A stretch of DNA of 64,000 bases from assembly GCA_026396175.1 (NCBI GenBank), contig JAPLXG010000013.1, positions 65,267 to 129,266 of the forward strand. The letters run 5' to 3'. Positions within the stretch are counted from its first letter, which is position 1. Each line of letters starts with the position of its first letter. The position numbers and the translations under genes are program-made. This DNA comes from Candidatus Moraniibacteriota bacterium (lineage in GTDB: Bacteria; Patescibacteriota; Minisyncoccia; Moranbacterales; UBA2206). Shown here piece after piece: positions 5,512 to 62,900 of the stretch. The notes beneath the pieces are model-generated. The model made no database searches. It had not been told where the DNA came from and saw nothing but the letters and a program-made list of their open reading frames with translations.

Positions 5512-5518
5512 TTCCTAG

Positions 5519-15328: not shown

Positions 15329-15442
15329 ATCTAATTTTACACGGATTATTTTTGCTGTCAATAGCTTAGAATATTTGGCTTAATTTAAGACAAAAAACCC
15401 ATGCTATTTCCGCCTTCATTTTCACGAGAATAAACTCTAATG

Positions 15443-15600
15443 TGTCATTCCCGCGAAGGCGGGAATCCAGGTTCCGCTAGCCATAGACTCTGAAAAATCG
15501 AATTATAAATCCCCCAACTTTTATTTTCTAACAAGCAAATCTCGCTTTTCTTTTTTTATAGCCTGAGGCGCCTGGATCCCCGCCTCCGCGGGGATGACAC
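15443..15600. repeat. MITE-like element, family B (gtcattcccgcgaaggcgggaatccag TIRs)
   Basis: Left end gtcattcccgcgaaggcgggaatccag, right end ctggatccccgcctccgcggggatgac. The same termini flank an 87-bp in-frame insert in elp3 (52504-52590). Confidence 0.55.
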
Positions 15601-17624: not shown

Positions 17625-18065
17625 CTAAAGTCCCATCACTTGGATGATGATATCGCGCTTTCTCGCGCCGTCCATTTCCGCCACAAAAATATTCTGCTTG
17701 GAAGTAAGGATCATATGCCCTTTTTCCAAGGGAACCGTTTCACTGACTCCCAAAAGCATCACCTTACAATGCGAATGACCGTTGCTCCTCCCATCCGATT
17801 TATTTTTTTTAGCCAGCTCAAAAAGATCATGGGAATAGCGCTCGTCAACCGGCGCCAAGCGATAGAGTACACGGGTAAAGTCTTGCAAAAGCATCGGTTC
17901 GTTGTGATTGACGAAAATTCCAGCCGAAGTATGCGGAGAATAGATCAGCACCGTCCCTTCGCGTACGCCGGAAAGACTGACCACTTCCGCCACCTTGTCG
18001 GTAATGTCAATAATTTCCACACTTGTGGTGCTGGTTATTTCGATTTTTTTGCGGAATATTTTCAT
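17625..18065 (-). CDS. YjbQ/UPF0047 family secondary thiamine-phosphate synthase-like protein
   Basis: 146 aa. Pattern IDITDKV...SPHTSAGIF...HSHCKVMLLG...TSKQ is typical of the YjbQ family. Confidence 0.7.
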   Translation of the reverse strand: MKIFRKKIEITSTTSVEIIDITDKVAEVVSLSGVREGTVLIYSPHTSAGIFVNHNEPMLLQDFTRVLYRLAPVDERYSHDLFELAKKNKSDGRSNGHSHCKVMLLGVSETVPLEKGHMILTSKQNIFVAEMDGARKRDIIIQVMGL

Positions 18066-18175
18066 ATTATTATCCGATACGAAACTACGAATTGAATCCG
18101 AATCTACGAAAAAAATTCAGTAGCATTTCGTAGAGTTCGTAGATTCGCATATATTTCGTTGTTTCGAATCGGTTA

Positions 18176-19300
18176 TTATTTTTTAAACACGCCCGCCACC
18201 TTTTTGACCACGCTTTTATCCAGCGCTCTTGGAATTATTCTATCACGAGTTGGCTTTTTTACCAAACTGGCAATCGCATAGGCGACTTTAATTTTATGCT
18301 CTTCGGTAATTTTTTTAATTTTATTATCCAACACGCCACGAAAAATTCCCGGAAACGCCAAAACATTGTTAATTTGATTGGCAAAGTCCGAGCGGCCAGT
18401 CGCCACAATGCGCGCGCCACCAGCTTTGGCACGGTCCGGCAAAATTTCCGGAATGGGATTAGCCATCGCAAACACAATTGAATTTTTATTCATCTGCGCG
18501 ATATCTTCTTCCGTGAGAATATTGGGCGCTGAAACGCCAATAAACACGTCCGCGAGATGAAGTGCGTCACGCACATTACCTTTGACATTTTCCGGATTCG
18601 TAATTTTGGCAATTTCCATTTTTGATCCATTAAGCCCACCCGCTCTTTCTCGATAGATTATCCCCATCCGATCGAGCATAATGATATTTTTCGCCCCCGC
18701 TTTAATGAGCAATTTGGCAATCGCCACACCCGCCGCGCCTGTCCCGGAAATGACAATTTTAATTTTTGCTAAATCTTTTTTAACCACTTTCAACGCATTG
18801 ATGAGTCCGGCCAGAACCACAATCGCCGTCCCATGTTGGTCATCGTGGAAAACCGGAATATCCAATTCTTTTTTCAAGCGTTCCTCAATCTCAAAACAAC
18901 GCGGCGCGCAAATATCTTCCAGGTTTATTCCGCCAAAAGTTGGCGCCAGTGCTTTTATTATTTTAATAATCTCCTGCGTATCTTGCGTCGCAAGCACAAT
19001 CGGAATCGCATCCACTCCGGCAAGTTCTTTCATCAGCAAAGCTTTGCCTTCCATCACCGGTAGCGCCGCTTCTGGACCAATATTGCCCAGGCCTAGTACC
19101 GCCGAGCCATCAGAAATCACCGCCACAGTATTTTTGCGAATGGTATATTGAAAAGATAATTTTTTATCCTTGGCAATTGCCTTCGACACTTCCGCCACCC
19201 CCGGAGTATACAAAACCGCCAGATTCTTATCTGTTAATTTAACTTTACTGCAAATTTCAATTTTCCCGCCGATTTTTTTGGAAAGCTTAATTGAATTCAT
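18176..19300 (-). CDS. NAD(P)-dependent malic enzyme (short form)
   Basis: 374 aa. LAVLYTPGVAE, NIGPEAALPVMEGKALL, the Rossmann stretch ISGTGAAGVA, and FAMANPIPE are present. Confidence 0.9.
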   Translation of the reverse strand: MNSIKLSKKIGGKIEICSKVKLTDKNLAVLYTPGVAEVSKAIAKDKKLSFQYTIRKNTVAVISDGSAVLGLGNIGPEAALPVMEGKALLMKELAGVDAIPIVLATQDTQEIIKIIKALAPTFGGINLEDICAPRCFEIEERLKKELDIPVFHDDQHGTAIVVLAGLINALKVVKKDLAKIKIVISGTGAAGVAIAKLLIKAGAKNIIMLDRMGIIYRERAGGLNGSKMEIAKITNPENVKGNVRDALHLADVFIGVSAPNILTEEDIAQMNKNSIVFAMANPIPEILPDRAKAGGARIVATGRSDFANQINNVLAFPGIFRGVLDNKIKKITEEHKIKVAYAIASLVKKPTRDRIIPRALDKSVVKKVAGVFKK

Positions 19301-20811: not shown

Positions 20812-20878
20812 AAATTTAAAAAATTAAAAATTATATTTGTATATTCGTACATTCGTACAAATTCGTAATTCGTAGAGA

Positions 20879-23772: not shown

Positions 23773-24390
23773 CTACTTCTTTTTTAAAATAATTTTTCCT
23801 CTCGTTTTTCTATTCTCATCGTTTCCGTAAAAGCCACTAATCTCTTTTGGCTTACACTCTTCAAAATTAAGAATGGCAAAGCCACAATGTCCCACAAAAC
23901 CAGTATTTGCTAGGTCTGTTTCTGTCGGGTTATTTGTATATTTATAACCCAAAATCCATTCTTCTTTATTGTTTTGATTTTTTTCAAAATAATTAGAGGA
24001 GCTTTTAAATTTTGATTGATCAAAATTGCCAGAGTATATAAAACCGCCATCTGTCTTTTTGATTTCTATTTTGCCGATTCCTTTGGTATTGTATTGTGAA
24101 TTTTCCCAATCATATTTATAAGAACTAGAATATTCCATTTCCCATTTTCCCGTGATGTCTGGATATTCTTGAAATCCAATGAATATAAATATTTTTTTGA
24201 TTAACCAATGCTTATTCCATAAATATTTTTCGTAAATAAAATTTAGAAAATAAAGAATCAAAAAAATTATAGCCGAGACGATGCTGTATTTCCAGAAATT
24301 TAGCCTGGGAAATCTATTGCTTACTGCATAAAATGCAAAAGTCAATAATACAGATATCGAAACAATTTTTTTCAAATCTAATTTTGTCAT
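23773..24390 (-). CDS. 2TM membrane protein with beta-rich C-terminal domain; candidate effector (Cap15-like/SLATT-like) of the adjacent NTase
   Basis: Start MTKLDLKK at 24390 overlaps the upstream stop (ATGA). Two TM helices (IVSISVLLTFAFYAV, IVSAIIFLILYFLNFI) are followed by a soluble Gly/Tyr/Lys-rich domain of about 125 aa. The region is AT-rich. Confidence 0.55.
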   Translation of the reverse strand: MTKLDLKKIVSISVLLTFAFYAVSNRFPRLNFWKYSIVSAIIFLILYFLNFIYEKYLWNKHWLIKKIFIFIGFQEYPDITGKWEMEYSSSYKYDWENSQYNTKGIGKIEIKKTDGGFIYSGNFDQSKFKSSSNYFEKNQNNKEEWILGYKYTNNPTETDLANTGFVGHCGFAILNFEECKPKEISGFYGNDENRKTRGKIILKKK

Positions 24391-25319
24391 AGCTTTTCTA
24401 AAATAAGACCGGCACTTTTTGAGATAAATATTTTTGCATTGTCTAACCCCCATCCATTTTTAGATAAAAACAGTAAGTCTTGACCATTGGCACATTTATA
24501 ATACTGCAATGATCCATTTTCTGAATCGTTAAGTGTATTTTGCAATACATTAATCACGATGCTTTGATAGCTTCCGTTAAATACGGGAGCAGGACAATTA
24601 TAAATCAGATTTTCAATGAAATATGACGGAGCAAGCTTTGCATCCATTTCATTTTTTTCATTTAGTTTTTTTCTGATATTTTTAAAAATTCTTATTGAAT
24701 CTTTAAATTTACCCTCCGTATCGCGATTGAGAGCTTCACAATTTTTTTTATGTTCTTTTGGATAATTTATAATTAAATCATTTGTTTCTGTGTTGTAAAA
24801 TTTTATGCCAGCTACATATTGATCAGTCGTATAAAAAGTAAAACGCCCATACTTTCTGTGATGAAAGGCAGGAATTACATCAGCATTTACGCGTAAAGTA
24901 TTTTTAGGTATTTTTATGCTTTTTCCCCCATACTCAATGGTCGTTCCCGAAAAATATTTTTGCAAAGAAGCATAAACATCTTTTTTGAATTGAGCGAATT
25001 GATATGCGCTTTTATTTGAGTAAAATGAGTGAAAATCTTTCTTTTCTTCTTCTGTTAATTGGTTTATATCATACGAAAATACAGAATTTAATTCAATCAC
25101 CACATCAACATCGCTATCTTCGGTAATATTTGTGCTATTTGCATATGATCCTTGCAGATAAATTTCATAGTTTTCTGCCTTAATTTCATATCCATGATTA
25201 TTTTTTGCAAATTCCGATAAATAAGCCGCCAAAGCTTTTCTAATTTCTTCGTGGGTGTATTTATATTTTGTTGCAGTTGGCGATGAAGCCCATGATTGTA
25301 GTTGTTGCTCCGATATCAT
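24387..25319 (-). CDS. minimal Pol-beta-superfamily nucleotidyltransferase, SMODS/CD-NTase-like
   Basis: 310 aa. GS-x11-DVDVV (LQGSYANSTNITEDSDVDVVIE) is followed by a third acidic strand (VNADVIPAF). The start overlaps the vsr stop (ATGA). The pairing with a downstream 2TM protein fits CBASS-like modules. Confidence 0.6.
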   Translation of the reverse strand: MISEQQLQSWASSPTATKYKYTHEEIRKALAAYLSEFAKNNHGYEIKAENYEIYLQGSYANSTNITEDSDVDVVIELNSVFSYDINQLTEEEKKDFHSFYSNKSAYQFAQFKKDVYASLQKYFSGTTIEYGGKSIKIPKNTLRVNADVIPAFHHRKYGRFTFYTTDQYVAGIKFYNTETNDLIINYPKEHKKNCEALNRDTEGKFKDSIRIFKNIRKKLNEKNEMDAKLAPSYFIENLIYNCPAPVFNGSYQSIVINVLQNTLNDSENGSLQYYKCANGQDLLFLSKNGWGLDNAKIFISKSAGLILEKL

Positions 25320-25726
25320 ATAGCTCCTTTTATAAATAAACTTAATTTTTCAGCACTTTTGTCAATCCTTTTAAGATCATGCTCCCAAATTCTAAAAATT
25401 TTCCAACCTAATTTTTTATATTGTCTATTAACCTCCTTGTCTCGTTCTTTGTTCCTGTCGATTTTTGTTTCCCAAAATTTTTTTCGAGTTTGAGGCATTG
25501 AACCATGCTTTTTGCATCCGTGCCAAAAACAAGAATCTATAAAAATAACGGTTTTGTGTTTGGGCAAAACAATATCAGGCTTCCCGAAATATTTTGTCGA
25601 ATTTTTACGATAACGAAACCCCGCTTTCCATAATTTTTTCCGAAATTCAATTTCTATCTTACTGTCCTTGCTTCGAACTTTTGACATAATCTCACTGCGT
25701 TTCTTTTTGGAAAAAATATCAGTCAT
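25316..25726 (-). CDS. vsr: very short patch repair endonuclease
   Basis: 136 aa. RSEIMSKVRSKDSKIEI, GKPDIVLPKHKTVIFIDSCFWHGC and WE.K match the Vsr family. Confidence 0.85.
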   Translation of the reverse strand: MTDIFSKKKRSEIMSKVRSKDSKIEIEFRKKLWKAGFRYRKNSTKYFGKPDIVLPKHKTVIFIDSCFWHGCKKHGSMPQTRKKFWETKIDRNKERDKEVNRQYKKLGWKIFRIWEHDLKRIDKSAEKLSLFIKGAI

Positions 25727-25734
25727 GACTGTTT

Positions 25735-26823
25735 TTATTTCAGAAATCTGATTTGTAAATTCAACTTGAAAAACAACTTGCCGTTTTCTTCATACAATTC
25801 ACCATAGCCATATCTGGTCGTGCTTGGTGCGTCAAATTTGGTGTTTTCATACAAATAAGAACGAAATTCATCTCGATTATACAAATGGTAGCATACCACA
25901 TCTCCATTTTCTTTTACCACAATATAGCCTCCTTGCGCTTTCGAAAAACCATCCCATGGTTTGCTGGGCACCATGCCGAGCGCAATCGCATCTAAAAAGT
26001 TTTTTATTTTGTATTCGTAATTCGTGAGCGATAATCCGAATTTTTGTTTCATATCCTCATTTTTGGAAAGCTCTTTTGTTAAATCAGCAACGGTTCTGTG
26101 TGTATTCGAGAAAAAATCCAAAAGCATTTGAGCGATAAATTCCGGCAATGCAGTATCAATCATTTTCATATTGAATTCGAATTGTTCATTTGAAACTCCA
26201 GCATATCTGAAAACCCCGCCCTGTTCCGTGATTTTGCTTACACGATCACGAATTTGCGCATTTGTTTGAATCGCATTAACTTTTGAAAGGTCTCCACTGA
26301 ATTCACTGATTTCATAAATGAAATTTGTTGTTTGTCCCGGGTTTAACAACGTAGAAGCTCCGCCAACCATAGACTTGATGGAAAAACCGAGCATCGGCAT
26401 TGTTTTTGAAATTGTGTCATAAATAATTGCCACCAAATCAGCTTTCTTTGCATTGCTGGCTTTAACTTTTGTGCAAAGCAATTCTTTCATTAATTCTTGC
26501 GCTTCGGGAATATTAAAAGAACGACTTCTTTCGTTTTTTATTTTTTCAAATATTTTCAAAGTTTTTTCCTTGAGTGAGTCATTGTTAAATTCTTTTAACA
26601 ATACGCCTTCCTCGTTGGTTATTAAAACCTTGGTTGCCGACTCAGAAATGTCATAAATTTTAGTTGATTCATCTTTTTCTTCTCTGATAATTTTATGAAA
26701 AACAAAAAACTTACCGTCAATTATTTCAAGATTTTTATCGGCAGCAAAAATCTTTCTTTCCTCTAAAATTTTTAGAAAAGCGTAAAATTCCGACCATTCT
26801 CCTTTGTTATTTCCTGTTTCCAT
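25735..26823 (-). CDS. putative type II restriction endonuclease (HpaII-like size and context)
   Basis: 362 aa with no recognisable motif. It sits between the C5 methyltransferase and vsr, overlapping the methyltransferase gene by 17 nt. The M-R-V arrangement mirrors known HpaII-type cassettes. The call rests on context. Confidence 0.4.
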   Translation of the reverse strand: METGNNKGEWSEFYAFLKILEERKIFAADKNLEIIDGKFFVFHKIIREEKDESTKIYDISESATKVLITNEEGVLLKEFNNDSLKEKTLKIFEKIKNERSRSFNIPEAQELMKELLCTKVKASNAKKADLVAIIYDTISKTMPMLGFSIKSMVGGASTLLNPGQTTNFIYEISEFSGDLSKVNAIQTNAQIRDRVSKITEQGGVFRYAGVSNEQFEFNMKMIDTALPEFIAQMLLDFFSNTHRTVADLTKELSKNEDMKQKFGLSLTNYEYKIKNFLDAIALGMVPSKPWDGFSKAQGGYIVVKENGDVVCYHLYNRDEFRSYLYENTKFDAPSTTRYGYGELYEENGKLFFKLNLQIRFLK

Positions 26824-28486
26824 ATTTTTTTAAAGTTTTAACTATTTCTTCAGCCACCGCTTGAATTGCCGGAACGGCAACTGAATTTCCAAGTTGCTTC
26901 ATGGCCTGAACCGATGAAAAATTTGGTGGAAATTCGTACCAATCGGGAAAACCTTGCATTTTTAATCCCTCTTTCGGTCCAAGCTGAACAATCTTTCCAT
27001 TAACTCTGTAAGCGTCCCAATTTCTGCGATCGGTTATTTTGCTTCCGCGCCCACCGACACGCAATGTAAATCCTATTTCCTTGTCGCATTTTCCATTGAA
27101 AATATCTGACAAGGTATATTTCAATTCCTTGATTGGTTCGGGAAATTTAAAATCTATCGAAGTATCCTTAAAACCAACCATGAAAAGACGAGGACGGTGT
27201 TGAGGTAATCCAAAATCAGAGGCTCTGACAATTTGCGGAAAGAAAGAATATCCCAATTCTTTCGTAATAACCCTTTCTATGGTTTTAAATGTTTTTCCAT
27301 CGTCATGACTTAATAGGCCACGCACATTTTCCAGAAAAAATGCCTTTGGCTTTTTTTCTTTAATTATTTTTACAATATCAAAAAACAAAGTTCCACGAGT
27401 TTCGCTAAATCCTTTTTTGAATCCGGCTTGAGAAAATGGCTGACAAGGAAATCCCGCTGTCAAAATATCAAAATCCGGGATATCTTTTGTTTTAATTTTT
27501 GTAATATCGCCAATGAAATTTCCAGAATCAAACATTTCAGGAGAAATTTTATAAAGATTGTGTCTGTATGTTTTTTGAGCGGGTCCGTCCCATTCTGATA
27601 CGAAGACACATTCCGCTCCTGCATTATGAAATGCAATATGGAAACCGCCAATACCTGCGAATAAATCTATAAATCGCAAATTGTCACTCTTCTTTTTGTT
27701 TTTTGCCATTGAGTTATTATAAAAATATAATTGATTTGCATCTACCAGCAAATCAAACAGGGAGGCTTGCGAGCCTTCCGCCACATATTCCGTGTTTGTT
27801 AATTCCACATTCTTCAAGTCACCAAGTATGCTATGCACCCCGTTTTTTGCAACAATTAAAAAATCGATAACATTTACGCCCATTAATTGCCCGGCTTCAA
27901 TTATCCTTTTTGCGACCTGCTTGTCCTGCTCACTTGGTTTCGGATCACCTGATGGGTGATTGTGAATAAGAATTACACCCGCTGCGTGCATTTCCAATCC
28001 GGGGGCAAAAATTTCTCGCGGGTGAATAATGCTTTTGTCCAATGTTCCGATTGAAATGGTTTCTTTTTTTATCAGAGCGTTACGTGCGTTCAAATAAAGA
28101 CAAATGAGATGTTCTTGTTTCTTGTCTTTTAAGTCCAAAACAAGATTAATGGCGTCTTGTGCTGACAAAATTAAATTATCCAAAGAATTTTGTTTGTTAA
28201 AAATTCTTCCGGTTAATGCGAGTGCTGATGAAATCTGCAACGCCTTCGCTTGTCCTATTCCTGAAATTTTCATTAAATCAGCAACTGAAACATTTAATAA
28301 ATTATCTCCAAATTTTTTGATAATCTTTTGTGATAATACTTTTACATTAGTGCCTTTAATCCCACTGCCAAGCAAAATAGCCAAAAGCTCGCTATCAGTT
28401 AAAGCATCCGGTCCTTTTTCCAGAAATTTTTCTCTGGGGCGATCAAATTTTGGTATATCTTTAATTTTAGGCATATTTGATGACAT
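26807..28486 (-). CDS. RadC-like JAB/MPN domain fused to DNA cytosine-5 methyltransferase (Dcm)
   Basis: N-terminal part of about 230 aa: HhH region (LMKISGIGQAKA), then JAMM motif HNHPSGDPKPSEQD. C-terminal part of about 320 aa: motif I FIDLFAGIGGF, motif IV GFPCQPFSQAG, motif VI ENV, and C-terminal motifs. The reading frame is continuous. Confidence 0.75.
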   Translation of the reverse strand: MSSNMPKIKDIPKFDRPREKFLEKGPDALTDSELLAILLGSGIKGTNVKVLSQKIIKKFGDNLLNVSVADLMKISGIGQAKALQISSALALTGRIFNKQNSLDNLILSAQDAINLVLDLKDKKQEHLICLYLNARNALIKKETISIGTLDKSIIHPREIFAPGLEMHAAGVILIHNHPSGDPKPSEQDKQVAKRIIEAGQLMGVNVIDFLIVAKNGVHSILGDLKNVELTNTEYVAEGSQASLFDLLVDANQLYFYNNSMAKNKKKSDNLRFIDLFAGIGGFHIAFHNAGAECVFVSEWDGPAQKTYRHNLYKISPEMFDSGNFIGDITKIKTKDIPDFDILTAGFPCQPFSQAGFKKGFSETRGTLFFDIVKIIKEKKPKAFFLENVRGLLSHDDGKTFKTIERVITKELGYSFFPQIVRASDFGLPQHRPRLFMVGFKDTSIDFKFPEPIKELKYTLSDIFNGKCDKEIGFTLRVGGRGSKITDRRNWDAYRVNGKIVQLGPKEGLKMQGFPDWYEFPPNFSSVQAMKQLGNSVAVPAIQAVAEEIVKTLKKYGNRK

Positions 28487-33317: not shown

Positions 33318-35693
33318 TTACCGGATTATCTTACCACCCTTTCCAACCTGATCAATTTTCACTGAAAGCAATTTTGACATTCCGTCTTCTCCCATGGTAA
33401 CGCCATACAGTAGTGAAGCTTGGCGCATTGTTTCGCGATTATGCGTGATGATCACAAATTGCGTTGAATCGGAAAGATCTTGAATAATGCGACCGAAACG
33501 CTTCGAATTTGCTTCATCGAGCGCCGCTTCCACTTCATCTAGGATAGAAAATGGTGGCGGATTGTGCGCAATAATGGCGAAAAGTAGCGCAAGGGAAGTG
33601 AGTGAGCGTTCTCCACCAGAAAGCATCGCGAGACTGGCAATTTTTTTGCCGGCCGGACAGGCAGAAATGTCTATCCCGATTTCGTCCTTATCATCTTCTC
33701 CATCAGCTGGCGGATTCAACTCGCCTTCTTCCGTTTCATTCCCTTGCTCAGTTGCCTCACTTTCCAAAATTTCGTCTTTCGTCCGGCGCGTTTTTATTTT
33801 CACCTTAGTCAAATGCGCGTCCCCACCGCCAAAAATAATGCGGAAATATTTGGAAAATTCTTTGTTAATCTCATCAAAAGTTTCATGAAATTTTTCATTC
33901 ACCTTTTTCTCCATTTCTTTGATTACTTCACGAAGTGAAACAAGGGCGTTTTCCAAATCAGCCGATTCTGTCGTTAAAAATTGAAAACGTTTTTCCGTCT
34001 CATTATATTCCGTCAGAACCAGTGGATCGATGCCACCAATTTGCTCCATCTGGAATTTCAATTTGGCAATTTCTCGTTCCAAGGAAAATTGATCAACTGT
34101 TTCTAATTTTTTGTCCAGAAGCTCCGCTTCCATCTTCAGCTCTTCCAAAATCCGCGCCCGCAAATCTTCTTCACGCACCTCGATTTTTGCCAAAGAAATT
34201 TTAAAATCGTTATATTTATCCTTGAAAGAATTCGTCTCGTCCTGCTTCAAGCGTAATTCGCGCTCAACTTGAAAAAATTGCTGACGCTTTTCGCGATCCA
34301 AGGCAATTTCCGCTTGAATCTCTTTGGCAATTTTTTGTAAATCTTCTTCCAGTGTCCTTATCTCCGCGCGAACTTGGAAAGATTTAGCTCTCAAATCAAT
34401 AATCGCTTGAGAATCTGCTTGAACAACAACTTCAATCGGCTTCGCCTCAACTTTTTTCGCCGGCATAGAAGTTTCCTTTTTGCCTGCCTGCCGGTAGGCA
34501 TGGCCATTTTCAATATCCCCTCGCAATTCCGTCAATTTTTGCTGAATCCTGCGCGCCAATTCTCGCACCGCTTCAATATCTTTCAAATCTTTGGCAACGT
34601 TCAGTTTTTGCACTAAAATTTCCTGGTCGCGCCGAATCTCTTCCAGATTACCTTTGACGTAACTCAAATCTACCGGCTGGCTTTGAATTTTTATCTCTTC
34701 GATGATTTGGATGCTTTTTTGTTTTTCTTTTTCCAGCTCGATCCGTCCTTCGGAAATGATCAGCTCCCGCTCCAAATCATTGAGGCGGGTGCGTTTTTCT
34801 CTTTGGCTTTTTTCCAACTCCTGCAAAGTCTCATTGGTTTTTTCTTCCTTGGAACGTCGATTGACTTCGTCCATCAATTTGTCCGCTTCCCGCTGAATAT
34901 TATTCATCTTTGCGCCTAACGTATCTTTTTCTTCGTTTAATTTCAGCTTGTCCTCATTGAACTTATTCCACAGATAGGTATAGAGCTTAGTTTGTTTTTC
35001 TTTCAAGTCCTTCGCCACAATTTCACTCTGCGCCGCTTTTTCCGCTTGACGCTTGAGCACCCGAAGATGCGGCCTAATTTCTTCGATTAGCTCGGAAGCG
35101 CGCACTAAATTCGCTTTAGTCGTTTCCAGTTTGCGCAGTGATCGTTCTTTTTTGATCTGATATTGCTTCACTCCCGCCGCTTCCTCAATCACAAACCGCC
35201 GTTCCAGTGGCGTGGCGCTAAGAATCGAATCAGCCATTCCCTGATTGATGATCGCATAGCTTTCTTTGCCCACTCCCGCTTTCGCTAGGATGTCCACAAT
35301 ATCTTGCAGTCTCACTCGCGAACCATTGACCAAATATTCACTTTCCCCACTGCGAAAAATTTTGCGACAAATTGCCACTTCAGAAAAATCCAGGGGCAAT
35401 CGTTTTTCACTATTATCAAAATAGAGCGTCACTTGCGCGCTACCCAATTTGGCTTTTTTTCCTGATCCGGCAAAAATAATATCCTCCGATTTTTTGCTAC
35501 GCAAATTTTTCATCGACTGTTCTCCGATCACCCAACGCATCGCATCGGCAATATTGGATTTTCCCGAACCATTCGGTCCAACAATTGCCGTTATTCCCTG
35601 AGCTCCGCCATCTTTCGGTGACGTCGAAAAATCCAACACCGTTTTCGCTGCGAAAGATTTAAACCCATTGATTTCCAGTTTTTTCAAAAACAT
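33318..35693 (-). CDS. smc: SMC-family chromosome segregation ATPase (short form)
   Basis: Probable start MFLKKLEINGFKSF. Walker A GPNGSGKSN, long coiled coils, C-terminal signature LSGGERSLTSLALLFA, and Walker B/D-loop ILDEVEAALD. A REP palindrome is inserted in frame within the coiled-coil region. The track ORF extends upstream to 35729. Confidence 0.85.
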   Translation of the reverse strand: MFLKKLEINGFKSFAAKTVLDFSTSPKDGGAQGITAIVGPNGSGKSNIADAMRWVIGEQSMKNLRSKKSEDIIFAGSGKKAKLGSAQVTLYFDNSEKRLPLDFSEVAICRKIFRSGESEYLVNGSRVRLQDIVDILAKAGVGKESYAIINQGMADSILSATPLERRFVIEEAAGVKQYQIKKERSLRKLETTKANLVRASELIEEIRPHLRVLKRQAEKAAQSEIVAKDLKEKQTKLYTYLWNKFNEDKLKLNEEKDTLGAKMNNIQREADKLMDEVNRRSKEEKTNETLQELEKSQREKRTRLNDLERELIISEGRIELEKEKQKSIQIIEEIKIQSQPVDLSYVKGNLEEIRRDQEILVQKLNVAKDLKDIEAVRELARRIQQKLTELRGDIENGHAYRQAGKKETSMPAKKVEAKPIEVVVQADSQAIIDLRAKSFQVRAEIRTLEEDLQKIAKEIQAEIALDREKRQQFFQVERELRLKQDETNSFKDKYNDFKISLAKIEVREEDLRARILEELKMEAELLDKKLETVDQFSLEREIAKLKFQMEQIGGIDPLVLTEYNETEKRFQFLTTESADLENALVSLREVIKEMEKKVNEKFHETFDEINKEFSKYFRIIFGGGDAHLTKVKIKTRRTKDEILESEATEQGNETEEGELNPPADGEDDKDEIGIDISACPAGKKIASLAMLSGGERSLTSLALLFAIIAHNPPPFSILDEVEAALDEANSKRFGRIIQDLSDSTQFVIITHNRETMRQASLLYGVTMGEDGMSKLLSVKIDQVGKGGKIIR

Positions 35694-36118
35694 AACATCA
35701 TGAAACATGAAGCATGAAACATGAAACAAAAAAGCTTACGCCTAATTTGTCTTATGCTTCATGCCTGCCTGCCAGTAGGCAGGTTATATGCTATATGTTA
35801 TATGTGTTTTTATTCTACTACACTTTAAAAAATTGGACAACGCCGTTTTTGCTGATATAATTAAAATACGCTTACGCGCAATGAATTTTCTCCGCCAGCT
35901 GGCGGATTAAATTTGAAATCAAGATCAAGTGACTAAATGCTTAAATGATAATTTAAAAATAAACTTCCTCACAGCAAACTAATAAGGCATTAGGGAATCT
36001 ACTTTACCCATTATGTAGCAACCTGCTGGGAATCAAACCCCTGAGTAATTAAAAATTTAATAATTTAGATTTGATTTTAAATTTATAATTTTAAATTTCA
36101 AATTTTTATTGCACTCCT

Positions 36119-37026: not shown

Positions 37027-37160
37027 CTACGAATTACGAACAAATACGAATGTACGAATAAATGCGAAATACTTTAAGAAAAATTAGGCTCAGTTTAAAT
37101 TATATTCGTACATTCGTACAAATTCGTAATTCGTAGAGAAAACCGTAATTCGTAGAGAAA
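37027..37160. repeat. TTCGTA/TACGAA hexamer-rich repeat array just upstream of cysS
   Basis: tatattcgtacattcgtacaaattcgtaattcgtagag recurs nearly identically at 20838-20877. Related arrays are at 18076-18175, 22813-22876 and 61160-61200. Confidence 0.5.
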
Positions 37161-38632: not shown

Positions 38633-38848
38633 CAGGACTTGCGCGTTTAAATTAAATTTGTCATCCTGAGCGGAGTCCTGTAATCAGGACGCAGTCGAAG
38701 GATCTGCTAACCGTAACCCATAGCTTTCTATTCGATATTAGGGCTTACGATAATGGAAAGTAGATCCCTGCCTACCGGCAGGCAGGCTTCGGCTTCGCTC
38801 AGGATGACATGGTTTAGTTGTTTTTAAACAAACGCGTAAATCCTAAAA
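38633..38848. repeat. MITE-like long hairpin element, family A (copy 2)
   Basis: aggacttgcgcg...tgtcatcctgagcg // cgctcaggatgaca...acgcgtaaatcct. The interior contains the REP palindrome. Confidence 0.6.
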
Positions 38849-39129: not shown

Positions 39130-39339
39130 TAAATATTTTATCCCACAATCATTCTCTGTAAAATGAGAATTGAGCAGCAAAAGCATGGCTCATTAACCAT
39201 GAGTTTAGTTGTTGGCAACATAGGTCATTGGCAGTAAGACTAGTTATAAGTTTTTGGTCTTAAGATTTTTCTAAAGACTTATAGCTGAAGACCTATCTTA
39301 TTGCCAACGACCATTGTTACTTACGACCATTATCTTTAT

Positions 39340-40365
39340 ATGAATAATTTTTGGTCAAAAATACCACGCCCAATCCTCGCCCTCGCTCCAATGGCCGGAA
39401 TTACCGACAGTGCTTTTCGGCAGATTTGCCGCAAGCACGGCGCTGATGTGACCTATTCCGAAATGGCGAGCGTGAGCGCGCTGTTTTATAAACCCGCCAA
39501 AACTCTGGAATTAGTGCGATTTAATAAAAAAGAACGACCCTATGTCGTGCAATTGTTTGGCAATAAGCCGGAGCATTTTGCTGTGGCCACGAAGATTATT
39601 ACAGAAAAAGTAAAGCCTGACGGGATTGATATTAACTTCGGCTGTCCGGCCAAGAAAGTTTTCAAACACGGCTCTGGTTGCGCGCTCATGCCGCAAATCG
39701 AACTGGCGCGTGAAATTATTTCGGCCGTTTGTGATAATACCAAACTTCCTGTGTCTATAAAAATTCGAGCAGGCGTTTCCGAGAGCTCAGCTCTCGGTTC
39801 TCCGAGAGCTGAGCTCTCGGATGCTAGAAATATATCCGCCCTAGAATTCATCGAAAAAACCAAAGACCTTCCCTACTCGGCTGTGATGGTGCACGGCCGC
39901 ACCTACGAAGGCGGATTTTCCGGCAATGTCGACTGGGAAATAATTTCGCAGATCAAGAAAATTATTCCCGAAAAAATCGTCCTGGGCAACGGCGGAATCA
40001 CCACGCCTGAAGGCGCTTTGGAAATTTTGCAAAAATACCCCAACATCGACGGCCTCGGCATCGCCCGCGGCGCGTGGGGTAAGCCCTATCTTTTTGAACA
40101 AATTAAAAAATACGCCCATACCGTAGGGGCGGTTCATGAACCGCCCCTACAAAAACAACCACCCCTACCGCCGGATTTTTCCAAAATAAAAAAAATAATG
40201 ATCGACCACGCCGAACTGATTTTCAAAGATAAAAAATCTTTCGGTCTTTTTGAAATCAGAAAACACCTCGTCTGGTACATTAAAGGTTTTCCCGGCGCCG
40301 CGGAACTGCGCCAAAAATTAGTGAGAGCTGAAAGTGTCGAAGAAATCAAGGAAATATTGAAATAA
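39340..40365 (+). CDS. dus: tRNA-dihydrouridine synthase
   Basis: Probable start MNNFWSK. LAPMAGITDSAFRQICRKHGADVTYSEM and the catalytic Cys region NFGCPAKKV are present. A 42-bp perfect palindrome is inserted in frame at 39779-39820. The track ORF starts at 39301. Confidence 0.85.
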   Translation: MNNFWSKIPRPILALAPMAGITDSAFRQICRKHGADVTYSEMASVSALFYKPAKTLELVRFNKKERPYVVQLFGNKPEHFAVATKIITEKVKPDGIDINFGCPAKKVFKHGSGCALMPQIELAREIISAVCDNTKLPVSIKIRAGVSESSALGSPRAELSDARNISALEFIEKTKDLPYSAVMVHGRTYEGGFSGNVDWEIISQIKKIIPEKIVLGNGGITTPEGALEILQKYPNIDGLGIARGAWGKPYLFEQIKKYAHTVGAVHEPPLQKQPPLPPDFSKIKKIMIDHAELIFKDKKSFGLFEIRKHLVWYIKGFPGAAELRQKLVRAESVEEIKEILK

Positions 40366-42730: not shown

Positions 42731-42864
42731 AATTTCTAATTTTAAATTTCTAATTTCTAAACAATTCTCAATTTTTTAATGATATAATTTTCTAAACTAA
42801 TTTAAAATTTAGTAATTGGAAATTGTTTGAAAATTGAAAATTAGAAATTGAAAATTTACCCAAA

Positions 42865-43458
42865 ATGTATCCCAAAAGCTTCAAAAAACTCATCGATAAC
42901 TTCGCCGCTCTGCCTTCTGTCGGTCCCAAAATGGCCGAGCGTTTGGTGTTATTTTTATTCAAGGCCGACAATGAAAAATTGTCTGATTTTGCGAGAAGTC
43001 TCGAAGATTTCAAAAAAAATCTCAGGCATTGTAAAAAATGTTGGAACATCAGCGAAGAAGAATTTTGCCAAATTTGCAAAGATAGCTCGCGCGACCAAAA
43101 AACTATCTGCGTCGTGGAAGATACGCTCGATGTTTTTGCGATTGAAAAAACCAAAAAATATACCGGACTCTACCACGTTCTCGGCGGAGTCTTGAGTCCA
43201 CAAAAAACCGTCGGCTCGGAAAATTTGCATTTTAAGGATTTAGATAATAGGATAGAAAAAGAAGGCATTTTGGAAGTTATATTGGCAATGAACCCCACCA
43301 CCGAGGGAGACGCCACAGCTCTTTATATTAATAGAACACTCAAAGACAAGGGTGTAAAAATCACCCGCCTCGCCCGTGGCCTCGCCACTGGCGCCGATAT
43401 TGAACACGCAGACGAGCTGACACTTAGCTCATCGCTTGCCAATAGGAGAGAAGTTTAA
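42865..43458 (+). CDS. recR: recombination protein RecR
   Basis: HhH motif, C4 zinc finger CKKCWNISEEEFCQIC, and a Toprim domain. Confidence 0.92.
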   Translation: MYPKSFKKLIDNFAALPSVGPKMAERLVLFLFKADNEKLSDFARSLEDFKKNLRHCKKCWNISEEEFCQICKDSSRDQKTICVVEDTLDVFAIEKTKKYTGLYHVLGGVLSPQKTVGSENLHFKDLDNRIEKEGILEVILAMNPTTEGDATALYINRTLKDKGVKITRLARGLATGADIEHADELTLSSSLANRREV

Positions 43459-43663: not shown

Positions 43664-43774
43664 ACGGCCAACGAGCCACAAAAAAGCCCGACAGGAAATA
43701 TCCTGCCGGGCTCGAATTTTTTTTAAGAACATTTTTGTCATTCCAGTAAAATCTATATCCCCTTCTCCATTAGG

Positions 43775-43900
43775 GAGAAGCCTGCCTGCCGGTAGGCAGG
43801 GTGGCCCCGCCGTGGCGGGGATGAGGGAGAAGAGGTATTGAAAGACTATTCCGTAGCCTCACCTGTCACGACGTAACGTCGGGACATCCTCTCCCTAAGT
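43775..43900. repeat. compound palindromic repeat cluster
   Basis: The REP palindrome cctgcctgccggtaggcagg, then ggccccgccgtggcggggatg, then the module gactattccgtagcctcacctgtcacgacgtaacgtcgggacatcctctccc. The same module recurs at 53870-53910. Confidence 0.5.
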
Positions 43901-45185: not shown

Positions 45186-45218
45186 TTAATTTGAAGTTAC
45201 CAGACTTTTAAATTTAAA

Positions 45219-45427
45219 ATGTCATCCTGAGCAAAGTCCGTACTCGGACGAAGCCGACCGCGTGCCGCCTTAGCTTTAGCGGTGGAGCAAGGATCTGCCA
45301 TCCACTACCGCAAGTTTTCTGTAATATAGTAAAACTTACGACAACCTATAGCAGATTCTTCGACTCCGCTGCGCTACGCTCAGAATGACAAGAGTTGTTT
45401 ATTTTTTCATGCAAATGCGTAAGTTTT
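45219..45427. repeat. MITE-like long hairpin element, family A (copy 3)
   Basis: atgtcatcctgagcaaagtccgtactcggacg ... cgctcagaatgacaagag...gcaaatgcgtaagtt. Confidence 0.55.
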
Positions 45428-46508: not shown

Positions 46509-46634
46509 AATGGTGCGGGACAAATTAGACGATCTCGGAACTTTAAGCGGGATAAACGCCACCCATTGCCCTACCGGCTCCGCCTGCCTACCCTGCCTAC
46601 CGGCAGGCAGGCGGCAGGCAGAGCTACGACCCAA
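46509..46634. repeat. degenerate tRNA-derived and REP composite
   Basis: The inverted partial copy of the 46338-46410 fragment (tggtgcgggacaaattagacgatctcggaacttt) is followed by a degenerate tRNA-Gln 5' half (cccattgccctaccggc ... agctacgacccaat). That half is split by tandem REP palindromes (tccgcctgcctaccctgcctaccggcaggcaggcggcaggcag). Confidence 0.5.
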
Positions 46635-49590: not shown

Positions 49591-49962
49591 TCAAAATTTT
49601 ATCAGCGCAAAAATATAGGGCAGGAAAATAATCAATCCGATAATCACCGCAAAAATGGCCGAGATCAGCACAATCGCCGCCATCAAGTCTTTGATGAGGC
49701 GCGCATAGGGATGAATCCGAGGTTTCAAAATGTCCACCACTCTTTCCACGACCGTATTCAGAAGCTCCATAATCAAAACTCCAGCAATCACGAGAACCAG
49801 GGCGACTGTTTCTGTCCGGGTGACATCAAAATAGACCATCGCAATAATCACTATAAAAGCTATAGCTAACTCATTTTGGAAATTTTTTTCGTTCTTGAGC
49901 ACATGCACAAGTCCGCGCATCGCGCAAGTTAGGCTTTTAGCAAATTGATTAATTCGGTTCAT
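49591..49962 (-). CDS. dgkA: diacylglycerol kinase family (undecaprenol kinase-like)
   Basis: 123 aa. Three TM helices and the ELLNTVVE..VD motif of prokaryotic DAGK. Confidence 0.85.
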   Translation of the reverse strand: MNRINQFAKSLTCAMRGLVHVLKNEKNFQNELAIAFIVIIAMVYFDVTRTETVALVLVIAGVLIMELLNTVVERVVDILKPRIHPYARLIKDLMAAIVLISAIFAVIIGLIIFLPYIFALIKF

Positions 49963-50474
49963 TTTTTTGTTTTATAGAAAAAATTAAAATTCTTCTTCGT
50001 CATGCCGTAGTCCCGCCGAGGCGGGACGAAGGCGGATGCCACCTCATCCTGAATGGCAAACATTTTTTTGCCATGAGAAAAGCCGAGCAAATGCAAAACG
50101 CCGTGGGCAATAATTTTTGCCAGTTCTTTTTGCAATTCAGTTTCCGAGGTACAGTCTTGCGCAGATTCTTTGATATAATTATAGCACAAAATCAATTCTC
50201 CGAGAAATAAATCCGATTCGGATGACTTTTTCAACCGCCCCGCGTCTTCAAATTCACAAAAAGACAAGACATCCGTTGCCTTGTCCTTTTTGCGATACTG
50301 CTTATTGATTTTTTTTATCTCAACCTCAGAAACCCAAGCCAGGCTTAAATTAAGCCTTTTTTTAGCTAATTCCAAGTAGCCGCTTTTTTCCAGCGTCCTT
50401 GCGACCACTTTTTTGATAAAAGCTTTTTTCACCGGGCTTTTGTCGGTGTTGTTGATTTCGACGGTTAGTTTCAT
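49959..50474 (-). CDS. ybeY: rRNA maturation endoribonuclease YbeY
   Basis: HGVLHLLGFSH zinc motif. The C-terminus (VASAFVPPRRDYGMTKKNFNFFYKTKK) extends past the usual YbeY end, through a palindromic repeat at 49997-50036. Confidence 0.88.
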   Translation of the reverse strand: MKLTVEINNTDKSPVKKAFIKKVVARTLEKSGYLELAKKRLNLSLAWVSEVEIKKINKQYRKKDKATDVLSFCEFEDAGRLKKSSESDLFLGELILCYNYIKESAQDCTSETELQKELAKIIAHGVLHLLGFSHGKKMFAIQDEVASAFVPPRRDYGMTKKNFNFFYKTKK

Positions 50475-50477: not shown

Positions 50478-51044
50478 TTATAGCAATTTCCTAGGTTTAA
50501 ATAATATTCCAAAAAAGGAAACCAGGGAAAGTAGCGACATTAAGATAAATAAGGTTTCGAATCCATAATTATTTACTATAATTCCTCCTGCGATTATTCC
50601 CGCCGCAGACGTCAAGTTAGCAATCAATAACCACTCGGAATATTCTTTTACGTGTCTATTTTTATCTAAATGATCCGCAAAAAGCACATTGAAAGATGGA
50701 CTACCAAGCGATTCACCTAGACCTAGGAAAACTTGAACCAATACCAACGCTGCCAAGCTATGAACAAAAATTAACAAGAGCCAGCTTATTATTCTTACCA
50801 AATAACCGGCAAGCAAAAGATACTCTCTTTCTTTTACCTGATCGCCCTTCTTGGAAACAACATACGTGAAAAATGACGTGGAAATTAAAAATGCTGCCCA
50901 TGAAATACTCACAGCGATTACCCCGTCCACAAATCTTACAACATAAATCGCATATAGTGGTCCGAGCATTGCAGCTGCCATCACAAATATTCCATTGTAT
51001 ATAAACAGCGCTTTTAAGGCATTATTTTTAAACTGTGCTTTCAT
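50478..51044 (-). CDS. membrane protein resembling one half of an MFS transporter (possibly a truncated remnant)
   Basis: 188 aa with about six TM helices. Only 28 bp separate it from the upstream gene, so the other MFS half is absent. Confidence 0.35.
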   Translation of the reverse strand: MKAQFKNNALKALFIYNGIFVMAAAMLGPLYAIYVVRFVDGVIAVSISWAAFLISTSFFTYVVSKKGDQVKEREYLLLAGYLVRIISWLLLIFVHSLAALVLVQVFLGLGESLGSPSFNVLFADHLDKNRHVKEYSEWLLIANLTSAAGIIAGGIIVNNYGFETLFILMSLLSLVSFFGILFKPRKLL

Positions 51045-51783: not shown

Positions 51784-51957
51784 AAATCAACTACTTTCTG
51801 CTATTGCTCGAAAAATAATTTGAAATTTTCAATTCTAAATTTTAATTCAAAACTAAATTTATAAATTTTAAATAAATCTCTCACTTGCCTCCATTTAATC
51901 ATTTAGTCATTTAGACTTGATTTTAAATTGAAAATTGAAAATTGAAAATTTAGCCCC

Positions 51958-53667
51958 ATGCTTAAAGCTTACGACAATTTCGTTAAACTGGCAATGAAAG
52001 AACCCGTCGCCACTTCCGGCGAATTTTTGCGCGTTAAAAAAAATGTTTCCAAGATTTTGCAACTTCCCGTGCCGACCAACGCTGATTTGCGCGAGGCTTA
52101 TGAAAAATTAGTTGCGGGGAAAAAGATCAAAAGAAACCCAGCTTTCGAAAAAATTCTCATCAGCAAAAAAATCCGTACCCGCTCCGGCGTGGCCGTCGTC
52201 GCCGTTCTCACCAAGCCCTATCCTTGCCCCGGAAAGTGTCTCTATTGTCCGAGCGAAGCCAAGATGCCCAAGAGCTATCTCAAGAATGAGCCGGCAGTTA
52301 TGCGCGCCATTTCTGTGAAATTTAGCCCTTACAAACAAGTGCAAAAACGTCTCCACGCACTGGAATTGAACGGTCACAAAACCGACAAAATCGAGCTGAT
52401 TGTGATGGGTGGCACTTTTTCCTATTTTCCCAAAACCTATCAAAATTGGTTTATCACGGAATGTTTTCGGGCGGTGAATGAATATGGCAAAAAAATCAAA
52501 AGTCCCTTTCTTTGTCATTCCCGCGAAGGCGGGAATCCAGTGTGTAAACTTAAAGATGCGAGACTAGATTCCCGCCTTCGCGGGAATGACATTAACTGTG
52601 CGGTTCCTAAATCGATTATTAAAAATTTAAAAAAGGACCTTTTAACCGAACAGAAAAAAAATGAAACTGCCAAGCGCCGGATTATCGGCTTAACCTTGGA
52701 AACCCGCCCGGATTACATTTCCGAAAAAGAAATTTTGAATTTTCGCACGCTTGGATGCACGAGAGTGGAGCTTGGCGTGCAAAGTGTTTTTGATGACGTG
52801 CTCAAAAAAAATAATCGCGGGCATAACGTGGCCGAAACAATTCGCGCCACAAAACTCTTGAAAAACGCCGGCTTTAAAATCAACTACCATATTATGCCGG
52901 GACTTTATGGCTCAGATGCTTTGAAAGATTACCAGATGTTCAAAACTCTTTTTTCCTCACCAGACTTCCAGCCAGATATGCTCAAAATTTATCCCACAGT
53001 CGTTCTTCGCGATAGCGCACTCTACTCGGCGTGGAAAAAGGGAAAGTATCAGGCCTTGGATGATAAGCAATTTGAAAAATTTATTCTGCGCGTGAAAAAA
53101 AATCTCATCCCGCCCTATGTCCGCATTGCGCGCCTGGTGCGTGATGTCCCCGCCGAATCAATCATCGCTGGACCACTCGTCTCAAACTTACGTCAAATGA
53201 TTGCCGAAAAATCCCAGTGCCTGTGCATCCGTTGCCGAGAGGTGGGGGGGGATTTTAGCCCAAATGAAGGCATCGTTCTAAACCGCATAGATTATGATGC
53301 ATCAGATGGAAAAGAGATATTTTTAGAATACGCGACAAAAGACACAAAAAAACTATTTGCTCTTTTGCGCCTACGTATAAATCCGCTTGAATTAGAAAAT
53401 CGGAAAACCACAGTTCCCGCCCTCAAAAACTCCGCCATCATCCGCGAGGTGCATACTTATGGAACGATGACGCAAATTGATAAGAAAAATAGTAAATCAC
53501 CGCAACATATCGGCCTCGGAAAAAAACTAATCGCCGAAGCCCAAAAAATCGCCAAGCAGGAATTCGGTCTCCAAAAAATCGCCATCATTTCCGGCGTTGG
53601 CGCCCGCGAGTATTACCGAAAACTAGGTTATCGCTTGAAGGATAGTTATATGGTAAAATGTATTTAG
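51958..53667 (+). CDS. Elp3-like radical SAM / GNAT acetyltransferase (tRNA U34 carboxymethyltransferase homologue)
   Basis: 569 aa. Radical-SAM cluster CPGKCLYCPS, a C-terminal GNAT fold, and an 87-bp family B palindromic element inserted in frame (residues ...SREGGNPVCKLKDARLDSRLRGNDI...). Confidence 0.85.
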   Translation: MLKAYDNFVKLAMKEPVATSGEFLRVKKNVSKILQLPVPTNADLREAYEKLVAGKKIKRNPAFEKILISKKIRTRSGVAVVAVLTKPYPCPGKCLYCPSEAKMPKSYLKNEPAVMRAISVKFSPYKQVQKRLHALELNGHKTDKIELIVMGGTFSYFPKTYQNWFITECFRAVNEYGKKIKSPFLCHSREGGNPVCKLKDARLDSRLRGNDINCAVPKSIIKNLKKDLLTEQKKNETAKRRIIGLTLETRPDYISEKEILNFRTLGCTRVELGVQSVFDDVLKKNNRGHNVAETIRATKLLKNAGFKINYHIMPGLYGSDALKDYQMFKTLFSSPDFQPDMLKIYPTVVLRDSALYSAWKKGKYQALDDKQFEKFILRVKKNLIPPYVRIARLVRDVPAESIIAGPLVSNLRQMIAEKSQCLCIRCREVGGDFSPNEGIVLNRIDYDASDGKEIFLEYATKDTKKLFALLRLRINPLELENRKTTVPALKNSAIIREVHTYGTMTQIDKKNSKSPQHIGLGKKLIAEAQKIAKQEFGLQKIAIISGVGAREYYRKLGYRLKDSYMVKCI

Positions 53668-53689: not shown

Positions 53690-53960
53690 GCGGAAATCTT
53701 TACTAATATCCTCTTCGCCCTCCGGGAGAAGGTGCCCGAAGGGCGGATGAGGGAAAGGGTTCAATATTAGGCAAAAACCAAATTAACTTAGATCATTCCC
53801 AACTTATAGCCCTTGCCCTCACCTGTCATGAGTACATGACATCCTCTCCCGAGGGGAGAAGAGGAATTAAAGGGACTATTCCATAGCCTCACCTGTCCTC
53901 CGGACATCCCTGCCTACCGGCAGGCAGGCTCTCCCGAGGGGAGAGGAGGATATTCCTAAG
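53690..53960. repeat. compound palindromic repeat cluster
   Basis: Contains gccctccgggagaaggtgcccgaagggcgg, two copies of the cctcacctgtc...gacatcc module, the REP palindrome ccctgcctaccggcaggcagg, and ctcccgaggggagag hairpins. Confidence 0.5.
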
Positions 53961-60117: not shown

Positions 60118-60165
60118 GTGAGTTCTTTACTAATTACGAATAGCTTACTAATATACTAATTTTTG

Positions 60166-60570: not shown

Positions 60571-60587
60571 TTAGTAATTCGTAAAGA

Positions 60588-62852: not shown

Positions 62853-62900
62853 AAAATTAGTTTAAATTTATTATTATGACTTAAGCATTTAAATTAAAAT

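Follow-up and report, generated by a model that had tools for sequence, protein, structure and literature searches.

Palindromic inserts in conserved genes of a Moranbacteria genome

The window analysed here is a 64-kb stretch of contig JAPLXG010000013.1 (positions 65,267 to 129,266) from a Candidatus Moraniibacteriota bacterium, with a GC content of ~42% and ~84% coding sequence (the remaining ~16% being non-coding). Short GC-rich palindromic repeats lie in its intergenic spacers and, in frame, inside conserved genes, at least 9 of ~65 genes being repeat-bearing with 7-40 amino acids (aa) added each (Table 1). The gene identities are backed by Pfam (SMC_N-type ATPase, PorA, PorD, PorB, Dus, Elp3, GrpE, YbeY, RlmN and DnaJ). 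An initial annotation, made from the sequence alone, had quoted seven elements inside coding genes; all were located in long intact open reading frames (ORFs), with small errors of coordinate or sequence, and its figure of at least seven affected genes rises to at least nine. In-gene elements that it had not listed are a second palindrome in dus, tandem units in porB, elements in rlmN and dnaJ, and a probable second insert in grpE.

Syntenic loci of close relatives (L-numbered loci) were collected via the Elp3, SMC and GrpE homologues; the window's Elp3 and SMC-like homologues carry the annotation Candidatus Moranbacteria/Moraniibacteriota, Parcubacteria group, which places the genome in the Candidate Phyla Radiation (CPR)/Patescibacteria. 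Between the window and these loci, gene order is kept, protein identity is mostly 75-95% and synonymous sites are saturated (dS about 1-2).

Table 1. Palindromic elements in the window. Coordinates are those of the window; z, folding energy as single-stranded DNA relative to shuffled sequence; REP, repetitive extragenic palindrome; REPIN, REP doublet forming a hairpin; MITE, miniature inverted-repeat transposable element; nt, nucleotides.
Feature	Gene	Position	Strand	Description
Family A mini-palindrome in SMC-like ATPase gene	33318-35729 (-)	34483-34505	-	21-nt, 7-aa insert GHAYRQA (34485-34505)
porA insert	58238-59422	58349-58375	-	27-nt, 9-aa insert PASSAGGPD; CCTGCC..GGCAGG stem
porD insert	59806-60117	59920-59964	-	45-nt, 15-aa insert EPAYTKASAGKQKSV; GCCTGCC-14 nt-GGCAGGC
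porB insert	56773-57777	57427-57519	-	93-nt, 31-aa insert; four tandem ~24-nt units (TLRQAQDG x4)
ybeY 3' end	49959-50474	49965-50036	-	CGTC-tagged palindrome CGTCCCGCCTCGGCGGGAC
elp3 REPIN-like element	51958-53667	52498-52617	+	insert of ~36-40 aa (~120 nt)
dus site 1	39301-40365	39778-39825	+	48-nt, 16-aa insert, peptide SESSALGSPRAELSDA
dus site 2	39301-40365	40123-40155	+	28-bp perfect GTAG-tagged palindrome GTAGGGGCGGTTCATGAACCGCCCCTAC (40123-40150), then duplicated segment; z = -7.2
rlmN double hairpin in variable loop	55201-56286	55805-55844	-	encodes YQPQAGPPWAEK
grpE N-terminal region palindrome		14484-14519	-	stem 10, loop 16; encodes PACNASHSDAGR; z = -5.1
dnaJ G/F linker palindromic segment	6514-7629	7335-7374	-	encodes SQGGPASGW
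Intergenic relative of elp3 element		15441-15600		GTCATTCCCGCGAAGGCGGGAATCC ... GGATCCCCGCCTCCGCGGGGATGAC
Family A, intergenic		3613-3632		nested in family F element
Family A, other intergenic copies		35764-35783, 38767-38786, 43781-43800, 46580-46619 (cluster), 53909-53928		
Family F, ~200-nt nested-palindrome MITE-like intergenic element		38636-38844; also 3550-3766, 45197-45407, 62878-63076		

Irrespective of what the initial annotation had claimed, 44 window genes were compared with the relatives. Clear window-only internal insertions were found in SMC, Dus (sites 1 and 2), Elp3, PorB, PorA and PorD and at the YbeY C terminus, each at a GC-rich repeat; further, non-palindromic indels were seen in CysS and in one gene with a single, more distant relative. 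Close relatives without a repeat lack the extra residues exactly at the repeat sites, and those relatives that share the GrpE or DnaJ peptide share the DNA palindrome too. A generic z-score test of minimum free energy (MFE) over all lineage-restricted insertions was blurred, as the aligner split inserts and some hairpins are weak, and it backs the strong cases only.

All inserts are a multiple of three in length and stop-free, with codon-exact boundaries, and the four in-gene copies of the CCTGCC...GGCAGG type (family A type) are all in the frame reading P-A...A-G. Segments that span the insert junctions in the predicted proteins are, for example, ...DIENGHAYRQAGKKE... and ...SREGGNPVCKLK.... 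On the sense strand, no T-run follows any in-gene hairpin. Because the ORFs are intact and the ratio of non-synonymous to synonymous substitutions (dN/dS) is 0.03-0.24, the affected genes, as judged from these alignments, are under purifying selection and are not pseudogenes. Neither of the two outcomes that the initial annotation had named as refuting was thus observed. Inteins, introns and translational bypass were rejected: the inserts, of 7-40 aa, have no intein or ribozyme features, and removal from RNA or protein would not require inserts that are all a multiple of three and stop-free.

Lineage-specific inserts in SMC, Por proteins, YbeY and Elp3

None of the 29 aligned homologues, some of them 88-90% identical, has the insert of the SMC-like ATPase. 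The homologues read DIEK-GKKE where the window protein reads DIEN-GHAYRQA-GKKE, and in the codon alignment the window has GAAAA[TGGCCATGCCTACCGGCAGGC]AGGCAAAAAG against GAAAAAGGCAAAAAG in L025, L026 and L027. The peptide that had been read over 34483-34502 is correct (GHAYRQAGKKE), while the DNA is CCTGCCTGCCGGTAGGCATG and ends in ...GGCATG, not ...GGCAGG. The insert had also been placed within the coiled-coil; in a low-confidence AlphaFold 2 (AF2) model it is instead predicted at the start of a non-helical apical linker, outside the heptads, with helix 382-409 stopping at the insert, which begins the apical coil of residues 410-440 (predicted local distance difference test (pLDDT) <50 at 412-437). 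Different elements occupy this apex in different lineages. The 'SMC' of 33318-35729 is itself a short (~780-800 aa) SMC_N ATPase, in which a hinge domain is not detectable and whose NCBI name is only 'AAA family ATPase'; a ~30-residue Pro/Lys-rich linker joins its two coiled-coil arms.

All three inserts of the por operon are missing in L020, L022 and L023. That of PorA, which adds 8 aa relative to PDB 9bt4, is flanked by a 10-nt direct repeat (TACCAAATAC); the string first reported for porA is real and lies at 58354-58374, 10 nt to the left of where it had been placed. PorD is 87 aa as called in these relatives (87-98 from the first possible start) versus 103 in the window, and its in-gene palindrome likewise exists, with the hairpin at 59935-59962 and not 59934-59962. 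PorB measures 301-311 aa in the relatives versus 334 in the window; its insert splits the TPP_enzyme_C match, and the repeat unit is similar to the two ends of family F, the intergenic element.

Separately, small 'selfish-type' ORFs occupy por-operon junctions and positions beside rlmN and dnaK (57832-58182, 59419-59802, 60166-60570, 54929-55225 and 11376-11774). They comprise 23S_rRNA_IVP/bAvd-like four-helix proteins, a PD-(D/E)XK nuclease and a GIY-YIG nuclease, the PD-(D/E)XK ORF being bounded by 37-nt inverted repeats (60124-60160 / 60551-60587). In L020, porB-porA-porD-porG are contiguous, without any such ORF.

At ybeY, the proposed extension of the C terminus holds: the ancestral stop is removed and the ORF runs ~17-19 aa into the former spacer, giving a protein of 171 aa versus 151-156 aa in L020, L022, L024 and L002 and overlapping the start of downstream dgkA by 4 nt. 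A 188-aa ORF (50478-51044) between ybeY and a methyltransferase gene has no counterpart in any syntenic relative; it is a truncated transporter, with a match to MFS_1 over the first half only.

The elp3 element is a pair of inverted ATTCCCGCGAAGGCGGGAAT units that build a 25-bp stem around a 29-nt loop (52513-52591), plus flanks (z = -11.2); this 79-nt element is stop-free in one of six frames, which is the frame in use. The insert is missing from the 81-87% identical L020/P0008, and residues 142 and 143 of Methanocaldococcus infernus Elp3 are contiguous across window Elp3 residues 179-225. In the AF2 model, residues 181-220 are predicted as a coil between two helices (pLDDT <50).

Across 26 homologues the Elp3 loop is hypervariable and holds typical repeat-derived peptides. 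L020 has none, L023 carries GTAGAGACGCATTGCGATGCGTCTCTAC, and in L001 that palindrome encloses a 21-nt family A unit, which adds ACLSGRQ; this nested pair, with the palindrome GTAGAGACGC...GCGTCTCTAC, is sited about 520-600 nt into each locus's Elp3 match. L007 and L005 have other GTAG palindromes at the loop, where the window has its REPIN-like doublet. An apparent double insertion (DDCLSGLPAGRQGRQALQCVS) is seen in the loop of P0014. The peptide encoded by the window insert (CHSREGGNP...DSRLRGND) has matches in 38 representative proteins. Most of these are translated repeat arrays of other bacteria, and a few (P0252, P0276) have the length and general look of real proteins. On sequence grounds these matches show that the motif is widespread and are uninformative on mechanism.

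The inserts of Elp3 and SMC are modelled as low-confidence coil, and those of PorA, PorD and Dus fall in gaps relative to solved orthologues. The inserts are thus predicted to sit at structurally permissive loop or surface positions.

Older and recurrent insertions in GrpE, DnaJ and RlmN

The grpE palindrome is present in the DNA of L028, L030 and L031 and absent from L029, L032 and L033. Its arms include a compensatory pair, T..A in the window versus C..G in L028 and L031. The dnaJ element is kept as a DNA palindrome in L030 and L031 and missing from some other relatives. Because some relatives share them, the grpE and dnaJ elements are older insertions. A probable second grpE insert at 14355-14414 is a window-specific, GC-rich imperfect palindrome (SSDASSSAKATADEKALADT; RNA MFE about -27 kcal/mol) that is partly shared with L028.

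The rlmN element is an inverted copy of the dnaJ element, and the loop in which it lies differs in every relative, being absent in L002.

Dispersed and nested repeat families

Family A is a 20-25-nt palindrome family (CCTGCCTRCCGGYAGGCAGG) with seven copies in the window. Its core 9-mer CCTGCCTGC occurs 9 times versus 0.17 expected, and none of 100 shuffles reaches nine; GC-rich perfect hairpins number 49 versus 5-14 in shuffled sequence. The elements are concentrated between genes although ~84% of the window is coding. Palindromes in intergenic clusters and inside genes with the frame kept, as the initial annotation had described them, were both found, at counts far above shuffles. Hairpin load also differs among relatives (none in 21.6 kb of L020, 14 loci in L023 and about 21 GC-rich loci in the 64-kb window), as expected of mobile DNA.

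In single-stranded DNA folding against shuffles, dus site 1, dus site 2, elp3 and grpE reach z = -5 to -11. Artefact or coincidence, that is, palindromes of codon usage, mis-assembly or decaying pseudogenes, could be suspected given that the window comes from a metagenome-assembled genome and that, for four hairpins, stability does not significantly exceed that of shuffles. This explanation is close to excluded, as the repeat counts far exceed those of shuffles, the independent assemblies of the relatives show the same phenomenon with other elements, and the ORFs are all intact, under the dN/dS values given above, with codon-exact insert boundaries.

The family A 20-mer occurs at non-homologous sites in relatives L008, L012, L025, L026 and L027. 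It is also found exactly in 12 IMG/VR stretches (L048-L059, putative viral contigs) with GC contents of 0.33-0.70, some of them with 2-3 copies per contig. In L052 and L053 the 20-mer is nested between a CTCCCCTCTCC..GGAGAGG hairpin and GGGGTGAGG, an arrangement like that at window positions 43759-43830 and 53905-53945. Family F has four window copies with 15-nt terminal inverted repeats (TIRs): two carry a nested family A unit where the other two read TTCGACTYCG, and one copy bears a different nested palindrome at another position.

A GTAG/CGTC tag is found in dus site 2 (GTAGGGGCG...), in ybeY (CGTCCCGCC...) and in the Elp3-loop palindromes of L023, L001, L005 and L007, and is not at the tag position in family A, elp3 or dus site 1. 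In family A the GTAG spans the loop-stem junction and not the outer end.

The family F element gave no Rfam match at E<=1, and neither a target-site duplication (TSD) nor a parent insertion sequence (IS) was seen for it; an Rfam 15 covariance-model scan of the window found three tRNAs only. With only tRNAs returned by the scans of the window and of family F, the idea of a known structured RNA was dropped. A link between the HpaII-type endonuclease and C5 methylase of the window (see below) and the central CCGG of family A was dropped as well, the window containing 243 CCGG sites versus 225 expected, neither depleted nor enriched.

The elements might be kept for a use, either as hairpins tuning operon expression, RNA decay, replication or recombination, or as peptides selected to diversify loops. 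Such a role would fit the recurrence of different elements in the same loops (Elp3, RlmN and the SMC apex) across lineages, the arms that are perfect though dS is saturated between relatives, the compensatory arm change in grpE, and the identity of the family A 20-mer to the base across hosts of 33-70% GC. We consider it highly improbable, as the inserts are missing from close relatives with the same genes and synteny, the affected proteins are unrelated in function, the inserted peptides are predicted to be disordered, no Rfam family is matched, and the hot spots are equally explained by loop permissiveness.

Dus palindromes and a possible origin in place

Site 1 of dus is a perfect 44-bp palindrome (39778-39821; z = -8.6) built from two inverted 19-20-nt mini-palindromes; a perfect palindrome had been described there, with a length of 42 bp that needs correcting. 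It is missing in L027 and L020, and matching gaps are seen relative to the Dus structures of T. maritima and E. coli. At site 2 the window protein is 6-12 aa longer than those of L020 and L027 and ~10 aa longer than Dus proteins in the PDB. The boundaries of this insert are ambiguous because its left arm aligns with native L020 sequence. Both dus palindromes may have arisen in situ by fold-back.

Applied to all elements, such an origin would mean that fold-back or template-switch replication or repair copies the neighbouring complement, so that the palindromes are local inverted duplications and not copies of mobile families. Both palindromes of dus are perfect over their 44 and 28 bp and have no other copy in any DNA examined; the left arm of site 2 aligns with native L020 coding sequence, leaving an 18-nt local duplication as net gain; and the compensatory arm pair between lineages in grpE fits arm-to-arm correction. 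As a general account it is nevertheless unlikely: the smc, elp3, porB and ybeY sequences recur at unrelated loci or in other genomes, both arms are gained together in smc, dus site 1, porA, porD and porB where the relatives have neither, and the nested filled and empty pairs use the same 20-21-mer.

Other features of the window

A tRNA-Lys gene (5096-5170, -) lies among partial tRNA copies within 4908-5599, two of them tandem 89-nt copies (4908-4996 and 4997-5085) and two being fragments on its other side (5183-5266 and 5516-5599). In the partial copies, TCCGCCnnnnGGCGGA palindromes replace T-arm and D/anticodon stem segments, and ARAGORN and Rfam call the intact tRNA only.

A low-GC (32-36%) defence island at 23773-28486 has no counterpart in syntenic L026 and L027. 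Its genes encode a CBASS-like pair of Cap15 effector and SMODS nucleotidyltransferase, together with a restriction endonuclease of the HpaII type and a fusion of RadC to a C5 cytosine methylase.

Two further repeats were also seen. One is TACGAAT-rich and 39 nt long (20840-20878, 37101-37139, 61159-61197 and 18059-18187); its copies at two intergenic sites far apart are 100% identical, and at a third site it is inverted. It may be a promoter/operator or the end of an element. The other is an AT-rich repeat of ~64 nt in which AAATTT recurs periodically (13862-13925, 36051-36114, 42803-42866 and 51897-51960). Three of its copies end at an adjacent start codon (36119, recR 42865 and elp3 51958), and a fourth, in the grpE-dnaK spacer, overlaps grpE at its end; a repeated promoter/5'-untranslated region module is possible.

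Probable proliferation of selfish palindromes and survival in permissive sites

Very probably, several families of short GC-rich palindromic repeats, selfish DNA of REP, REPIN or MITE-like character, are proliferating in Moranbacteria, and their in-gene copies are those that survive in permissive sites. Insertions would land between and within genes, and in-gene copies would persist only if their length is a multiple of three, the frame in use is stop-free and they lie in a loop, linker or terminus that is permissive. Such an insert would then be translated as a short, mostly Gly/Ala/Pro/Ser/Arg-rich disordered segment, nearly neutral, with the host protein still functional. Spread would be driven by a trans-acting hairpin-specific transposase, for example of the RAYT (REP-associated tyrosine transposase) or IS200 type, or by recombination or templated repair between copies. 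Documented here are presence/absence polymorphism, dispersed families, nesting, frame preservation, purifying selection on the hosts and predicted disorder of two inserts.

Several observations weigh against this reading. A second copy of the dus palindromes was found neither in the window nor in 700 kb from relatives, which leaves their assignment to a family unproven. Taken alone, the hairpins of smc, porA, porD and ybeY are weak in thermodynamic terms (z = -0.8 to -1.8), and the case for them therefore rests on family membership and insertion status. No consistent TSD is seen, the direct repeats being 10 nt at porA and 3-6 nt at smc and porD, and no transposase or RAYT (no Y1_Tnp match) was found among the 37 window ORFs scanned. 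The SMC model is of low overall confidence (predicted template modelling score, pTM, 0.33).

As to age, the initial annotation had proposed a very active or ancient invasion. The grpE and dnaJ insertions are shared and older; 'very active' draws only on the perfect arms and on presence or absence among relatives, at saturated dS. The perfection of arms despite dS of about 1-2, together with the grpE compensatory change, suggests either youth of the elements or arm-to-arm correction.

A more far-reaching proposal, which we hold to be doubtful, is that CCTGCCTRCCGGYAGGCAGG and similar mini-palindromes are independent insertion modules, among the smallest mobile DNA units known. The 20-mer itself is conserved to the base, both across hosts with GC contents of 33-70% and in viral contigs. 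The modules would preferentially enter the loops of hairpins in other repeats, as well as a few protein loops that are 'hot', and would be moved by a hairpin-specific enzyme. In the CPR they would be one of the main sources of change in loop length among conserved proteins, and at a higher density than in Rickettsia.

Ultra-small genomes are usually described as streamlined. Here, in a single 64-kb stretch, at least 9 of ~65 genes have repeat-derived peptide segments. The phenomenon of 'selfish DNA inside protein-coding genes', known from Rickettsia and some few bacteria rich in REPs, thereby reaches the CPR. For CPR annotation and phylogenomics, such inserts are lineage-specific, non-homologous and misalignment-prone, and are a source of spurious 'hypothetical proteins'; structure prediction is affected too. 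The natural pairs of filled and empty sites, some of them nested, can be used to work out how tiny palindromes spread, and the recurrent loops (Elp3, RlmN and the SMC apex) map permissive insertion sites in widely used enzymes.

Comparison with known systems

A literature search found no published CPR report of such in-gene palindromes, which is no proof of absence. Among known systems, organellar GC-cluster and double-hairpin palindromes in genes, such as mitochondrial cases (PMC2670323, PMC6649704), are likewise selfish palindromes tolerated in coding sequence; they belong to other sequence families, and in the Nematomorpha case conserved portions of proteins are encoded by each of the two arms.

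Among bacterial MITEs, copies in frame within genes are known for ERIC, BOX, Correia and QMITE1 (PMC10969869, PMC2759123). The present elements resemble them as non-autonomous repeats with inverted ends and in-frame fusions, and family F is MITE-like in size and in its 15-nt TIRs. The in-gene units, in contrast, are much shorter, with no TIRs apart from the hairpin itself and no clear TSD; set against the features that define MITEs (70-300 bp, TIRs, TSD and a related IS), they are too short and lack a consistent TSD.

Di Nocera et al. 2013 (PMC3733652) described intragenic GTAG/CGTC REPs, with dimers that encode 20-30 aa, for Opitutus, Rickettsia, Thioalkalivibrio and Xanthomonas. REPs are similarly 20-40-nt GC-rich imperfect palindromes, mainly extragenic, present as singlets, inverted dimers and clusters and sometimes located in genes; the 64 kb compared here hold seven cores of family A and about 21 loci with GC-rich hairpins. 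The elp3 element, with two inverted units and a spacer, is REPIN-like, and dus site 1 is also an inverted doublet. The likeness in tag is only partial, since family A has none at the canonical outer end; the window ORFs scanned include no RAYT, and none of the papers found mentions a CPR host.

The closest likeness drawn by the initial annotation was to Rickettsia palindromic elements (RPEs), and the behaviour is indeed as described for them and likewise for intragenic REPs (PMC10969869, PMC3733652), as an analogy and not as membership of an RPE family. RPEs are palindromic repeats in frame in ORFs, about 100-150 bp long and Rickettsia-specific (Ogata et al. 2000, as summarised in PMC10969869). 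In both cases palindromes of several families lie between genes and in frame in unrelated conserved genes of a small-genome, host-dependent bacterium, with peptides compatible with fold and function. By published descriptions the elements here are set apart by their size (20-120 nt, mostly mini-palindromes or doublets of 20-45 nt), their modular and nested make-up and their CPR host, and at least one 20-mer is shared with unrelated contigs, some GC-rich and some GC-poor. Local density is higher as well, at least 9 of ~65 genes in 64 kb versus 44 RPE integrations reported genome-wide in R. conorii (PMC10969869). The present case works as theirs does, with no claim that the elements are RPE-family members. 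In-frame palindromes themselves are known from Rickettsia and REP-rich bacteria; what is new is the CPR host lineage, the very small size of the units and their modular, nested build, the repeated use of the same loops and this local density.

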